Shown: positions 1-45,561 of the stretch, piece after piece
Layout: every line of letters starts with the position of its first letter
Position numbering within the stretch: the stretch's first letter is position 1
Assembly: GCA_963765765.1 (NCBI GenBank)
Contig: CAVXYC010000001.1
Coordinates: 192,001-256,000, forward strand
Length of the DNA: 64,000 nt
Source: an uncultured Chloroflexia bacterium
GTDB taxonomy: Bacteria; Chloroflexota; UBA6077; JACCZL01
Direction: 5' to 3'
Translations under genes and position numbers: made by a program
Notes under the pieces: generated by a model
Database searches by the model: none
The model's input: the letters and a program-made list of their open reading frames with translations, nothing else
Told to the model about the DNA's origin: nothing

Positions 1-462
1 CTCCAGCGACAGGGCGGCGGATGGCAAACTTCGAGGCGGCGGCCCAGGTCCTGGGGCAGCAGGTGCGGCGGGTGCCGGCGCGGACGGCCGACGACTTCGC
101 CGGCGCCTTCCGCGGCGGTCGGCTGGGGTGCCGACGCGGTGCTGGTGCCATCGGACGGCCTGACCGTCAGTTACCCGACTCGGGTCGTCGAGCTGGCGAC
201 GCAGCATCGGCTGCCGACCTTCTACGAACATCGGGAGTTCACCGATGTGGGCGGGCTTGCGACCTACGGGCCCAACTACGCCGAGATCTACTGGCGCGCC
301 GCCACCTACGTGGACAGGATCCTCAAAGGGGCCACGCCGGCCGATCTCCCCGTCGAAGAGCCCACGACCTTCGACTTCGTGATCAACCTCAAGGCCGCCC
401 AGGGGCTCGGGCTGATCATCCCGCAGTCGGTCCTGGCCCAGGCGACCGAGCTCATCCAGTAG
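1..462 (+). CDS. ABC transporter substrate-binding protein, ABC_sub_bind type (5' partial, frameshift near 110)
   Basis: C-terminus GGLATYGP..YVDRILKGATPADLPVEEPTTFDFVINLKAAQGLGL..LAQATELIQ is the family signature; paralogous to 560..1585. Confidence 0.9.
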   Translation, partial: LQRQGGGWQTSRRRPRSWGSRCGGCRRGRPTTSPAPSAAVGWGADAVLVPSDGLTVSYPTRVVELATQHRLPTFYEHREFTDVGGLATYGPNYAEIYWRAATYVDRILKGATPADLPVEEPTTFDFVINLKAAQGLGLIIPQSVLAQATELIQ

Positions 463-463
463 C

Positions 464-543
464 GAGTGAGCTCGCTCGAGCAATCTCCCTCTTTCGCTGA
501 GCCCCTAGGTAGGCACGTTCCGATAATGGGGGTTATCGGAACG
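464..543 (+). repeat. ~80-bp direct repeat copy 1 ending in symmetric dif-like site CGTTCCGATAA-TGGGGG-TTATCGGAACG (516-543)
   Basis: 464-517 nearly identical to 1624-1678; perfect 11-bp inverted arms around a 6-bp spacer. Confidence 0.85.
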
Positions 544-559
544 TCGACCGCCCCGGTGA

Positions 560-1585
560 CTACTGGATGACTTCGGTGGCCTGCGTCAGGATGGACTGCG
601 GAATGGTCAGCCCCAGGGCGTGCGCTGTTTTGAGATTGATGGCGAAGTCGAACTCTGTGGGCCGCTCCATCGGCAGGTCGCCGGGGCGGGCACCTCGCAG
701 GATCTTGTCCACGTACGGTGCTGCGCTCCGGTAGATCGCGGCTCGACTCGAGCCATATGCCAGCAAGCCTCCCGCCCGAGCGAACTCCGGAAATTCCGTG
801 ATCGACGGCAGCCGATACCGGAGTGCTAACTCGGCGATGCGTCCCCACGCAGAGTCCCACTGGGTGGCGGCGAGAAGCTTGACGGCATCAGCGCCGGCTG
901 CGGATACGGCCACGAACGCGTCGTCGAGGCCGCTGATGTTCGGTATGTGGACGACGTGAAGGTGTACCCCGAGGCCGGGCGCGGCCTCCTGGAGCGCCCG
1001 CAGGCGGATCTCTGATCCCGAGGTCGCGTCGGCGCTGCCTTCGCGGAGCACGGCTACACGGGAGGCGTGCGGAACCGCTTCCTTCAGTAGTTGAAGCTGC
1101 TTGCCTTCGAATTGCGACCCGCTGATGCCGGCCGTCCCGGTGATGTTCCCGCCGGGCCGCGCGATGTTGTCGACGAGCCCCATCTCGATTGCCTCCGTGC
1201 TGAACAGGATCGTCACGAGCGGGACCGTGGCGGTCGCTTGCTTGGCGGCGAGGCTGGCCGGCGGCGAGCCCACTACAATCAGCTCGACCTTCCGCTCGAC
1301 GAGCTCGGTCGCCAGCGCCCCGTACCGTTGGGAGTCTCCCCCGGCCCAGCGGGACTCCACGGCGAGGTTCCGGCCCTCGACCCAGCCCAGCTCCCGCAGT
1401 CCATCCCAGAACGCGTCCCAACGCCCGCCAGGCGCGCCTCCGAGGACCCCGATCAGGCGCACCCGCTCGGACGTTGGGGCCTGGGGAGGGAGCAGCCCGC
1501 AGCCGGCCAACAGACCGAGGCCGGCCACGGACAAGCCACCCATCAGGAAGCGGCGACGGGTGCTCGATGGTCCGAGTGGCGTCAT
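560..1585 (-). CDS. ABC transporter substrate-binding lipoprotein, ABC_sub_bind type, Tat signal
   Basis: TRRRFL Tat motif, LAGC lipobox, GWVEGRNL, RPGGNITG, DLPMERPTEFDFAINLKTA; ATG at 1585 shortly after a TACACT -10. Confidence 0.93.
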   Translation of the reverse strand: MTPLGPSSTRRRFLMGGLSVAGLGLLAGCGLLPPQAPTSERVRLIGVLGGAPGGRWDAFWDGLRELGWVEGRNLAVESRWAGGDSQRYGALATELVERKVELIVVGSPPASLAAKQATATVPLVTILFSTEAIEMGLVDNIARPGGNITGTAGISGSQFEGKQLQLLKEAVPHASRVAVLREGSADATSGSEIRLRALQEAAPGLGVHLHVVHIPNISGLDDAFVAVSAAGADAVKLLAATQWDSAWGRIAELALRYRLPSITEFPEFARAGGLLAYGSSRAAIYRSAAPYVDKILRGARPGDLPMERPTEFDFAINLKTAHALGLTIPQSILTQATEVIQ

Positions 1586-1623
1586 GATGGCGCTAGTGTA
1601 CGCCCGCGTGGTGCCACAACGCA

Positions 1624-1705
1624 GAGTGAGCTCGCTCGAGCAATCTCCCCTCTTTCGCTGAGCCCCTAGGCAGGCACGGGGCCGATAATGGCGATTATCG
1701 GAGTG
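1624..1705 (+). repeat. ~80-bp direct repeat copy 2 ending in dif-like site GGGGCCGATAA-TGGCGA-TTATCGGAGTG (1678-1705)
   Basis: Direct repeat of 464-543; CCGATAA-N6-TTATCGG core conserved, spacer and outer arms differ. Confidence 0.85.
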
Positions 1706-1933
1706 ATCGGGTTCCACTGTCGGGCGCGGCGTGCCTCCCGCGCTCACGCTATGATCTCACGTTGTGGCTTCCGCGGAATCCTCGTTTGGGAATTCTGCTT
1801 GGCTGTGCGGTACGGTTCGCCGAAGACGGCGACATCGATTTCCATACGAACGAACCGTTGCACTACATTCACTATCGTTGAAGCGTACAAGTCGTGACGG
1901 TGATAACCGTCTGGGTTCGGAGAGATTGCTTCC

Positions 1934-2695
1934 ATGAGGACCGTGCTCATCATTGGCATTGGTGCAGGCGATCCCGACTACATGACGGTGCAGGCCATTA
2001 AAGCGCTCAATCGAGTTGACGTGTTCTTCGTCATCGACAAAGGGCCACGCAAAGACGAGCTGGCCCGTCTACGGACCACTATCTGCGATCGCTACATTGA
2101 GCATCGCTCCTATCGGTTCGTTGAGATCCAGGACCCAGAGCGCGACCGATCAGGAAACCATTACCGAGCGGCCGTTGAGGCGTGGCGTCAGGAGCGAATG
2201 GAGAAATATCAGTTGGCCTTGCTCAGCGAGCTCGACCCTGAGGCTACCGGGGGATTTCTCGTCTGGGGCGATCCAACAATTTATGACGGCACGCTGGGCA
2301 TGATCCATGAGATTGCCGCGCGTGGTGCGGTTGATCTGAACTACGAGGTGATCCCGGGAATCTCCAGTGTTCAGGCACTGGCTGCACAGCACAAGGTTCC
2401 TTTGAATCGGGTGGGCGAGCCCATTCACATCACGACCGGTAGGCGCGTATCCGAAGGGCTCACGGCAGACCAGGACAATCTGGTTGTGATGCTCGATGGC
2501 GATCAGGCCTTTCGTCAGGTCGCCGACGAAGGTTTTGATATCTATTGGGGCGCGTATGTGGGTACGGAGGATGAGATTCTCGTATCCGGCCATCTTGAAG
2601 ATGTGAAGGATGAGCTGGAAACGATCCGTGCTGACGCCCGCGAAAAGCACGGCTGGATTATGGACACCTATATCCTTCGGCGGCGGGAGTCTTGA
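1934..2695 (+). CDS. cobF: Precorrin-6A synthase (deacetylating)
   Basis: IGIGAGDPDYMTVQAIKAL, FLVWGDPTIYD, VIPGISS, IYWGAYVG, GWIMDTYILRR. Confidence 0.93.
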   Translation: MRTVLIIGIGAGDPDYMTVQAIKALNRVDVFFVIDKGPRKDELARLRTTICDRYIEHRSYRFVEIQDPERDRSGNHYRAAVEAWRQERMEKYQLALLSELDPEATGGFLVWGDPTIYDGTLGMIHEIAARGAVDLNYEVIPGISSVQALAAQHKVPLNRVGEPIHITTGRRVSEGLTADQDNLVVMLDGDQAFRQVADEGFDIYWGAYVGTEDEILVSGHLEDVKDELETIRADAREKHGWIMDTYILRRRES

Positions 2696-3456
2696 GCCTC
2701 GTCACGGCGAGCGGACCGGTGCTCGTGCTTGGGGGGACCTCGGAAGCTCGCGAAGTTGCTGATGCGCTGGACCAAGCCGGTCAACCAGTTGTGTCCTCAA
2801 TGGCTGGCCGCATAGCCTCGCCGAGCTTTCCCGCTGGTGAGGTGCGGGTCGGCGGATTTGGCGGCGCCGAGTCACTGGCGGAGTGGCTTGAGGTCAACAG
2901 GTGCGCCGCGGTGATCGATGCGACGCACCCATTCGCCGTGAGGATCTCAAAGTCCGCCGTCTCGGCCTGCGGCGCCGCTCAGGTGCCGCTCGTGCGATTG
3001 AATCGGCCCGGGTGGGTCCAGCAACCCGAAGACCGTTGGTACTGGGTCGATGATATCGAGTCGGCCGCCGTTCTGGCGCCGCGGCTCGGGAATCGAATCC
3101 TGCTGACCATCGGACGTCAGTACCTGAATGCCTTCGCACATGTATCAGACGCGTGGTTCCTGGTCCGCTCCGTGGACCCGCCAACGTTGACCCTACCGAT
3201 GGACCATGAGCTGCTGTTGAGTCGCGGACCATTCACGCTTGATGCTGAGATGGAGCTGATCCAGAGACATCGGATCGACCTCATTGTGACGAGAGATAGC
3301 GGCGGAGCTGCCACCGAGCCCAAGCTTCTTGCTGCACGGGCACGCGGTCTCCCGGTTGTTGTCGTGCGCCGACCGCCTTGTCCTGATGTATTCACCGTGC
3401 CGGGAGCCCCCGAGGCCCTGGCGTGGCTGCAAGAAGTGGCGGGTCGGAGCTGGTGA
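2692..3456 (+). CDS. cobK: Precorrin-6x / cobalt-precorrin-6A reductase
   Basis: VLGGTSEAR, RVGGFGG, IDATHPFA, RGPF, DSGG..TEPKL. Confidence 0.93.
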   Translation: MSLVTASGPVLVLGGTSEAREVADALDQAGQPVVSSMAGRIASPSFPAGEVRVGGFGGAESLAEWLEVNRCAAVIDATHPFAVRISKSAVSACGAAQVPLVRLNRPGWVQQPEDRWYWVDDIESAAVLAPRLGNRILLTIGRQYLNAFAHVSDAWFLVRSVDPPTLTLPMDHELLLSRGPFTLDAEMELIQRHRIDLIVTRDSGGAATEPKLLAARARGLPVVVVRRPPCPDVFTVPGAPEALAWLQEVAGRSW

Positions 3457-44940: not shown

Positions 44941-45135
44941 TCAGATGGCGTCCCTAAACGCTTCCTCGATCTTGCTAGCCGCCTCGGCGTCCTGGCTGCG
45001 GACCATTTGGCTGTACGCGGTAAGCGTGATCGCGGGGGTGCTGTGGCCCAGCCGCTCGGACATCACTCGTAAGGGGACACTCATAGCGTGCATCGCGCTC
45101 GCGTTCGCGTGGCGGAGGTCATGCGGGCGGTAGCG
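44941..45135 (-). pseudogene. Tyrosine integrase C-terminal remnant
   Basis: RPHDLRH, ERLGHS, T...Y catalytic motifs; points at tRNA fragment; TGCCGGAA direct repeats at 44915 and 44927. Confidence 0.88.
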
Positions 45136-45561
45136 TTGTCGGCAACTTTGCGCGCTTGAGTGCCACTTCTTTGCGAGCGGCCCGTCAACCGCAGTGAACT
45201 GACCGTGAAAGTCCAAAATCAGCGACGGTACGTTCTGGGCTGCATAGCTCGCTGATTACCCTGGCAACCGTCTACGATTTACTTAGCCAGGGATACCGAG
45301 CACAAACAAATGGGAACTACCCTGCACGCTTGGCTTCCTTGGGTCGCTTCCCGGCCCCTATTCGTAATGCTGAGGTGCGCGGGATAGTGACAGACGGCAC
45401 TTCTAGAAGTGCCGATCGTTACCTTGCTCCCAGGGCAGTAGCGCGTTACGCTCGCGTCAAAAAGAGTCGATTCGATCTGAGATCGCCGCGGGAATGGCAT
45501 GGAATACCCGGTGCTCGGTCAGGTTGGCGCGAACCGATGTCGCACTCGCGGAAGCATTCCG

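Follow-up and report, generated by a model that had tools for sequence, protein, structure and literature searches.

The window analysed here is a 64-kb stretch of contig C1 (C1:192001-256000) from the genome of an uncultured Chloroflexia bacterium, which is represented by a metagenome-style assembly of 6.49 Mb in 33 contigs with 6.85% contamination. At the left end of the window lie two genes for solute-binding proteins (SBPs; ABC_sub_bind, PF04392) in opposite orientations, together with two direct copies of an ~80-bp repeat (91% identity over 77 nt), each consisting of a 54-bp segment, termed A, that runs into a palindromic core site (Table 1). The first 26 nt of A had exactly two matches in the window, both on the + strand, at 464 and 1624, and CCGATAA-N6-TTATCGG was matched twice, at 520-539 and 1682-1701; neither count was reached in any of 100 shuffles (mean for the latter pattern, 0.03). 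A preliminary description made from the window alone had reported the direct repeat at these positions and had assigned an 11-6-11 palindrome to both copies. The repeat was confirmed in position and orientation. As for the palindrome, core site 1 indeed has perfect 11-nt arms (within 516-543), whereas complementarity in core site 2 (1678-1705) is limited to the inner 7 nt of each arm. Also as described, the two copies enclose one ABC_sub_bind gene, which is intact, and the SBP gene of the opposite orientation ends with the stop codon TAG at 460-462, leaving a 1-nt gap before the first copy of A. However, the enclosed gene had been thought to be accompanied by its promoter, and this was not supported, because the sole promoter-like match in positions 1-2000, a weak one at 1723-1694 on the - strand, overlaps core site 2 and extends past it. 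A -10-like GATAAT is present on the minus strand of core site 2. The N-terminus of the enclosed SBP reads as a twin-arginine (Tat) lipoprotein-like signal.

The left SBP gene lies in two frames, split near window positions 100-257 (profile hidden Markov model fragments at C1:191463-192257 and 192103-192459), and the two SBP genes flanking the first repeat copy share ~56% protein identity. A third site, which is degenerate, was found at C1:191289, 711 nt to the left of the window and just upstream of the left SBP gene. The order of the locus is therefore site, SBP gene (+) with A, site, SBP gene (-) with A, and site. Farther to the left there were no more units and only unrelated genes, and the suggested continuation of the array in that direction thus came down to this one degenerate site. 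To the right of site 2 are genes of the cobalamin pathway (TP_methylase, 1934-2695; CbiJ/CobK, 2692-3456).

The core site, GTTCCGATAA-TGGGGG-TTATCGGAAC in its oriented form, is a member of a genome-wide family of about 47 copies, which are intergenic and occur in arrays. The family consensus, GTTCCGATAATGGGGGTTATCGGAACG, is a 27-bp near-palindrome of 10/11-6-10/11 geometry with a G-rich spacer. Twenty-four places in the genome match CCGATAA-N6-TTATCGG with at most one mismatch, 39 sites scored >=18 with a position weight matrix (PWM; the maximum for a reversed-PWM control was 13.2), and the count of 47 was reached by allowing G-run spacers of 5-8 nt. Unlike a chromosomal dif site, of which one copy is present at the terminus, these sites are located on at least 12 contigs, with clusters on C1, C7, C20, C23, C27, and C30. 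The spacer is kept across the family, mostly as TGGGGG, with 5-, 7-, and 8-nt spacers also present, and because this conserved spacer is G-rich, each site has a direction. The exact right-arm word occurred 50 times, whereas composition predicts 6.2 occurrences and the reversed word was present 7 times; the exact word forms the right arm in 18 sites and the left arm in three, so that the spacer and the right arm are the best-kept part of the site. Since changes in the left arm are mostly uncompensated, pairing is not the conserved feature. The site hairpin is stable (-12.3 kcal/mol as DNA, z -7.5), as is true of any palindrome. The 10-6-10 geometry, the kept spacer, and the stronger right arm would fit core sites of tyrosine recombinases that have a strong and a weak arm. 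The preliminary description was also right that the two arms are alike, being reverse complements, and that an XerD arm is lacking; neither ATAA-N6-TTATGT nor a canonical dif site was found in the assembly. At one site (C23:457673-457714), the right arm plus 5 nt (TTATCGGAACGAGGC) forms a 15-nt tandem duplication.

The sequences to the left of the core differ among sites. Six near-full copies of A plus core were found (two on C1, one on C7, two on C23, and one on C27), and the remaining sites have different left flanks. About seven copies of a ~115-bp composite element, termed the C element, contain the arm GGTTCCGATAA, 16 nt, the arm TTATCTGGAACC, ~45 nt, and the core, with four arms in all, and a related arm-16-arm motif lies within a 115-bp flank common to C30 and C20. 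Such a composite structure fits the accessory sites of resolution systems and a MITE-like family equally well.

We then examined how the sites are arranged relative to one another and to genes. All 24 pairs of neighbouring sites 100-5000 bp apart had the same orientation (binomial p = 6e-8), a result that tandem duplication would likewise produce, and orientation was uniform across hundreds of kb within a contig; GC skew was weak and its agreement with site orientation mixed. Fifteen of the 45 SBP loci in the genome have a site within ~300 bp, far above chance, and six have sites on both sides. The sites are often found 20-60 nt past stop codons and can precede or follow a gene, on the same strand or the opposite one. 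The arrays bound single genes in either orientation, and their cargo includes unrelated genes besides those of SBPs (Table 1), ars-like genes among them. The DHFR-like label of the broken gene on C23 was read from sequence, and the open reading frame (ORF) has no Pfam family. One SBP module (C20:550706-551908) is located between a phage-type integrase gene and terminase-small and Prim-Pol genes, within a prophage-like island. We also considered a link to phage-type integrases (C1:183 kb, C20:550 kb, and C10 of genome G029) and rejected it, as these loci had nothing in common beyond integrase and SBP genes. The PF04392 expansion (45 SBP loci genome-wide, e.g., C17:122.9-131.8 kb and C1:274-282 kb) includes many frameshift-split members. 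Parts of the block with AurF-like and sigma-factor genes (C7:41651-45094) are 95-96% identical to C1:99841-100769 and C15:594858-595292, and a degenerate site-like sequence is present at C1:100993.

When regions of +/-1.5 kb around the 39 sites were compared all against all, each of the 24 distinct site-registered pairs showed one-sided similarity, up to 1.27 kb long at 82-91% identity, which either ended no more than 3 nt from the site or began 1-13 nt inside it. Three types of module were distinguished (Table 1), and one and the same right flank was found next to left flanks of the A, C, or D kind, and vice versa. Beside its site, the SnoaL module still carries 48 nt from the end of a type II gene as a relic. 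Apart from the intact copy in the window, the other four type II copies are 79-89% identical and contain many 1-2-nt indels.

Abundance of the site is specific to this genome. Among 41 related genomes, a 25-mer of the site was matched with at most three mismatches in three, namely this genome (G000; 22 matches), G007 (one), and G029 (two), and a phylum-wide sample of 401 genomes gave the same three; the same-genus genome G001 had no match at this threshold. A looser pattern, searched for in one genome of each species, had 17 single matches, which is close to the chance number as roughly estimated, and viral contigs gave 0 matches to the site pattern. In the relatives, the alignment of SBP homologues ends at the stop codon, and neither A nor the core is present. 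Two metagenome contigs of one data set carry perfect sites with flanks 83-93% identical to this genome. In contig L095 (~92% identical), the right flank of the site at C27:45972 (glyoxalase side) is joined via a perfect site to GNAT and Rieske genes; the GNAT gene is absent from this genome, and the Rieske gene is located here 42 kb away, beside the site at C27:88177. This is the sole site-bounded change between strains that we found. Soil Logan contigs (shares <=0.17) on C1:189-197 kb had no joint at any site, and two contigs of run X2, whose matches break off where site 1 ends and within the spacer of site 2, lend support neither way. The genome G001, compared for synteny, is only ~67-83% identical and consists of 650 contigs, with the flanks on separate short contigs, and its LigB copy was closer to that of C2 than to that of C23.

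As candidates for an enzyme acting on the sites, the genome offers 21 PF00589 matches, including Xer-family genes on C29 (268.6 bits with the XerD model), C10 (148 bits), and C30 (162 bits, C-terminal piece), none at the curated cut-off. The gene on C30 (C30:93979-94987), which is a single copy in the genome, starts ~100-150 bp from the site at C30:95083 and is directed away from the following SBP array, an integron-like layout. Its 234-aa C-terminal piece, to which alone the scores apply, gave 162.4 with XerC (cut-off 335), 161.1 with XerA_Arch (cut-off 220), and 150.7 with XerD (cut-off 330), and the nearest solved structures are those of archaeal XerA (4a8e and 5hxy). By these scores the predicted C30 recombinase is Xer-like and not an equivalog. 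No integron integrase was detected, since 0 of 15 TIGR02249 matches passed (best, 49.5 bits vs a cut-off of 265), and the arrays outside C30 have no adjoining recombinase gene. A small gene (C30:93660-94088, - strand) overlaps the Xer-like gene at the end of the latter and encodes a protein with a zinc-ribbon-like Cys/His motif at the C-terminus. Three of the 41 genomes have a close homologue of the recombinase (this genome, G001 at 87%, and G029 at 69%), and the Zn-ribbon gene is conserved in the two others (68% in G001 and 45% in G029) and located near a site in all three. In G001 the sole site-like sequence is 1.4 kb from the Xer-like homologue and ~1.06 kb from the Zn-ribbon gene, and in G029 the Zn-ribbon homologue is 117 bp from one of the two sites, inside an integrase-bearing island. 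The chance of such proximities is ~1e-3 or less per genome, by a rough estimate made for a pattern found post hoc. The Zn-ribbon protein matched no Pfam or NCBIfam family; the ESM Atlas gave phage-like hypothetical proteins (best 0.87, below the counting level), with Zn_ribbon_Top1 in 13% of one cluster, which we regard as a lead only. Beside the Xer-like gene (C30:92.1-93.7 kb), a Phd/YefM antitoxin gene is accompanied by a DUF4917 gene that is broken into two ORFs.

From these observations we tentatively favour, with somewhat less than even confidence, the reading that the sites are core sites of a tyrosine recombinase of the Xer family, at which small modules, chiefly orphan SBP genes, have been copied or shuffled in a manner similar to dif modules and integrons. 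A recombinase dimer would bind the two like arms of a site, as expected for a homomeric enzyme, and after synapsis of two sites with the same spacer, exchange within the spacer would excise the segment bounded by direct sites in circular form, with one site on the circle. The circle could re-enter at any other site, and over time small modules would be copied and shuffled among loci, one of them ending up within the prophage-like island. The enzyme might be the C30 Xer-like protein acting with its Zn-ribbon neighbour, or one of the host Xer proteins encoded on C29 and C10. Many cargo genes, like the candidate recombinase gene, carry frameshifts, and what is seen today may therefore be the relic of a system; the broken type II copies and the broken recombinase gene suggest either a decaying system or an error-prone assembly.

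The preliminary description had proposed a closely related scheme, in which one SBP gene, the 54-bp accessory segment, and a core site form a cassette handled by a single homomeric recombinase. The part of this proposal that stands is the single gene in either orientation, and the enrichment of sites near PF04392 genes and their direct tandem arrangement, both of which it had pointed to as informative, were found as described above; the accessory segment is present at only six of ~47 sites, and the cargo extends beyond SBPs. A single homomeric enzyme has gained a candidate in the Xer-family gene nearest XerA beside a site, but that gene is frameshifted. Similarity breaks at the site in all 24 pairs, although similarity among site-less paralogues also ends at ORF ends, and a change of gene content at a site between strains was seen in L095, where the site joins a different partner, as the sole case. 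The circles, empty sites, and spacer crossovers that the scheme implies were not seen in the Logan contigs on C1:189-197 kb. That the repeat is the terminal inverted repeat of an insertion sequence (IS) or of a miniature inverted-repeat transposable element (MITE) had been named as an outcome contrary to the scheme; the arm does flank a single IS copy, and this outcome retains some likelihood, although the 5-nt direct repeats there and an IS homologue without the arm speak the other way, as detailed below.

Several observations weigh against the recombination-site reading. Besides the missing excision products, large deletions would be a danger with 47 active direct sites distributed over at least 12 contigs. 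Four of the five type II copies are broken and identity between even the most similar modules is only 91-92%, with no sign of recent activity. The C30 Xer-like gene is split between two frames in the present assembly, and its G029 homologue has no nearby site. Thirty of the 45 SBP loci, including whole tandem arrays, have no site. The A segment has two distinct left junctions with no palindrome at either, so that A and the core may travel together as one element; the C elements and site doublets 32 bp apart resemble MITE families and repetitive extragenic palindromic (REP) families. In the C30/C20 pair, similarity extends to both sides of the site, with 115 bp on the left. With regard to the breakpoints, four site-less type II-like paralogues align with the window copy from the stop codon to ~21 nt upstream of the ATG, and the similarity of six type III-like copies ends at the stop codon. 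ORF-limited homogenisation or duplication thus occurs here without sites, e.g., by gene conversion among old paralogues, and the exact ending of paralogue similarity (83-92%) at ORF ends suggests gene conversion or ORF-precise copying. Such ORF-exact similarity without sites makes the breakpoint evidence weaker, and because the sites are 20-60 nt from ORF ends, part of the stop-at-site signal could be ORF-limited. The extensions from ORF ends to sites (2-4 copies each) and the swapped flanks are left unexplained by ORF-limited copying.

The remaining points of this kind concern an IS. A single-copy IS5/IS1182-like element to the left of the window (C1:180352-181896; DUF772 and DDE_Tnp_1, frameshifted into two frames) has GTTCCTATAA beside one end and TTATCGGAAC beside the other, which are the arms of a site, and CGGGG is present between arm and IS end as a direct repeat at both junctions. 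The simplest reading of these junctions is that the IS probably landed in a site's spacer and duplicated 5 bp there. As a parallel, IS1202-family elements are reported to home to dif and pdif sites (PMC10132070). Alternatively, the arm could be the tip of a long IS end and the palindromes IS-derived. A remnant of the junction of IS end and arm is present again at C10:138639, the IS end in G007 has a diverged arm-like sequence next to it, and the flank after five sites resembles the inner IS end, all of which would suit IS derivation, whereas the 55% identical IS of G025 has 21-nt inverted repeats without the arm.

These observations lead to the strongest competing explanation, a serious one that we nevertheless consider less likely: the sites would be selfish REP/MITE-like palindromes, perhaps derived from or mobilised by an IS with the arm at its ends, that multiplied in a lineage burst, inserted between genes and frequently right behind stop codons, and whose dispersed 27-bp repeats feed homologous or illegitimate recombination and gene conversion, so that module boundaries would form with no dedicated recombinase acting on cassettes. 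The confinement of abundance to one genome, with copies in three of 41 relatives and three of 401 phylum genomes, suits such elements, as do the several composite forms and doublets, the behaviour of A plus core as an 80-bp unit with two left junctions, the adjoining of the arm to IS ends at two loci and of an arm-like sequence in G007, the ORF-exact ends of similarity without sites, and the stable hairpin. Uniform orientation over hundreds of kb is likewise a property of strand-biased hairpin elements. REPs and the composite bacterial interspersed mosaic elements (BIMEs) are known rearrangement end-points, and our sites resemble them in being short, species-specific, multi-copy extragenic palindromes, often past stop codons and at times in composite clusters. 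Unlike REP/BIME families with their REP-associated tyrosine transposases (RAYTs), however, the sites have uniform and not alternating orientation, number ~47 and not hundreds, show mostly uncompensated left-arm changes, and have no adjoining Y1 transposase gene, as none of the three Y1_Tnp hits (C20:197.9 kb, C18:113.7 kb, and C23:350.6 kb) is in a site cluster. No target-site duplications were seen by eye around five C elements. Moreover, CGGGG beside the IS is direct and not inverted, which fits insertion in a spacer, the inverted terminal repeats of the more distant G025 homologue lack the arm, and the Xer/Zn-ribbon link in three genomes is left unexplained by selfish palindromes.

An improbable explanation is that the site is a cis-acting expression signal duplicated together with genes, i.e., the operator of a dimeric regulator, a terminator, or an RNA-stabilising hairpin. 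The intergenic position, often 20-60 nt past a stop codon, and the hairpin would be compatible with this, as would the -10-like GATAAT formed by the arm and the first spacer base and the arm spacings of 6 and 16 nt, which are one helical turn apart. However, no terminator-like T-run was found in window positions 1-2000, and the site is absent from 30 of the 45 SBP loci and from the SBP homologues of relatives, where similarity ends at the stop codon. The neighbours (genes of SBPs, phosphofructokinase (PFK), ars-like functions, cydAB, and SnoaL) make no coherent regulon, the site occurs on either gene side and either strand, and a conserved spacer with a genome-private distribution would be unusual for an operator. 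Finally, local duplication or mis-assembly of paralogous SBP genes, which the metagenome-style assembly with its contamination and the many frameshifted SBP copies might suggest, is hardly credible given the ~56% identity of the genes flanking copy 1 and a family of ~47 copies that spans at least 12 contigs and is also represented on two independent metagenome contigs and in two further genomes.

Compared with known systems, the family is neither an integron nor a dif module of the Acinetobacter type, given its like arms and direct sites and the lack of both IntI and attC. In Acinetobacter dif modules, the XerC and XerD arms differ, neighbouring sites are inverted, and C/D modules alternate (PMC13141974), and the pdif sites are located on Rep_3/OrfX plasmids, chromosomal ones being recent (PMC13141974, PMC10132070, PMC6449649, PMC12907356). 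Our sites share with them a double-stranded two-arm structure, a 6-bp spacer, small accessory modules, one site shared by adjoining modules, an IS family known to target the sites there, and, less clearly, breaks at sites in varied contexts; they differ in that the arms are reverse complements and the neighbours direct in 24 of 24 pairs. Differences are also seen in the host, a soil Chloroflexota bacterium, in the location on large contigs and not small plasmids, and in the cargo, which is mostly orphan SBPs. In a literature search of articles without their supplements, dif modules were found in Acinetobacter only and such sites were not found in Chloroflexota.

A resemblance to integrons lies in the same-direction arrays between single genes, the diverse strain-specific cargo, and, at C30 alone, the recombinase gene directed away from the first site. 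Unlike integrons, however, the present system has no IntI, mixed gene orientation, and sites that are dispersed and not gathered on one platform. attC sites are 55-140 bp long and folded, whereas those described here are simple 27-bp palindromes with mostly uncompensated left-arm changes, a comparison made without an attC model. XerS and XerH genes adjoin their sites. The Xer-family candidate nearest XerA, with its gene near a site of two like arms, is similarly reminiscent of the single-recombinase systems XerS/difSL, XerH/difH, and archaeal XerA/dif (for the latter, PMC2958812). Those systems have single-copy dimer-resolution sites, in contrast to ~47 copies here, and the candidate enzyme is under every curated Xer cut-off.

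A more specific form of the recombination-site reading, which in its entirety we judge unlikely, would be a chromosomal gene-capture system of Chloroflexota distinct from integrons and Acinetobacter dif modules, in which a homomeric XerA-like enzyme with a small Zn-ribbon helper, encoded next to its first site as in integrons, moves single-gene modules, mainly those of orphan SBP lipoproteins, among the ~47 double-stranded 27-bp sites with their common TGGGGG overlap, and an IS family homes there. If so, the repertoire for ligand sensing and uptake would be diversified by it. If the sites are recombinase targets at all, they would represent a cassette system of a third kind, next to integrons and the dif modules of Acinetobacter, one that is chromosomal, uses symmetric direct sites, and belongs to a little-studied soil phylum. 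This would explain in concrete terms how orphan PF04392 genes came to be so strongly and patchily expanded in soil bacteria, and the simple 27-bp site and the candidate enzyme would be bench-testable. Were the sites REP/MITE-like instead, a genome-private palindrome would still shape the boundaries of duplicated genes.

Table 1. Features of the window locus (window coordinates) and related modules and elements elsewhere in the genome (contig coordinates)
Feature	Position	Strand	Remarks
Left SBP gene, 3' part (PF04392-like, type I module)	1..462	+	start left of window, C1:191334
54-bp A segment, copy 1	464..516	+	repeat search
Core site 1, GTTCCGATAATGGGGGTTATCGGAACG	517..543	+	equals family consensus; PWM 46.8 (maximum 46.8)
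Linker, 16 nt, core site 1 to stop codon of minus-strand gene	544..559	.	common to copy at C7:227
Intact SBP gene, type II module, 341 aa	560..1585	-	PF04392 at 126.7 bits
38-nt stretch, start codon to A copy 2	1586..1623	.	common to copy at C7:35901
A segment, copy 2	1624..1678	+	repeat search
Core site 2, degenerate	1679..1705	+	spacer TGGCGA; PWM 32.9
Type I module	C1, C23 (two), partly C27		site, ~140 nt leader, SBP in site direction, A, site
Type II module	C1, C7 (two), C20, C30		site, 16-20 nt, SBP opposite, some with 38 nt and A, site
Type III module	C1:182 kb, C7:2.5-4.0 kb		
Site-less type II-like paralogues	C1:2012-3054, C27:48904-49949, C17:130759-131798, C23:67730-68802		84-92% identity; C23 copy to 44 nt upstream
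C element copies	C27:88178, C7:45095, C6:22656, C10:48970, C7:140-253		partial copies at C1:19792, C27:48702
Cargo on C23	C23		PFK, small secreted-looking ORF, SnoaL-like gene, broken DHFR-like gene
Cargo on C7	C7		LMWPc/MIP/YnfA block; AurF-like/DUF2703/sigma-70 block
Cargo on C27	C27		cydAB
Gene adjoining array on C30	C30		RibD_C gene, just beyond last site-like sequence

Elsewhere in the window, we noted a cobalamin riboswitch (RF00174, 31046-31226, + strand, 41.8 bits), a tRNA gene (Rfam RF00005, 59329-59400, - strand, 38.8 bits), and a fragment of a tyrosine-recombinase catalytic domain (PF00589, 29.8 bits) at 45007-45159 on the - strand, distant from the repeats.

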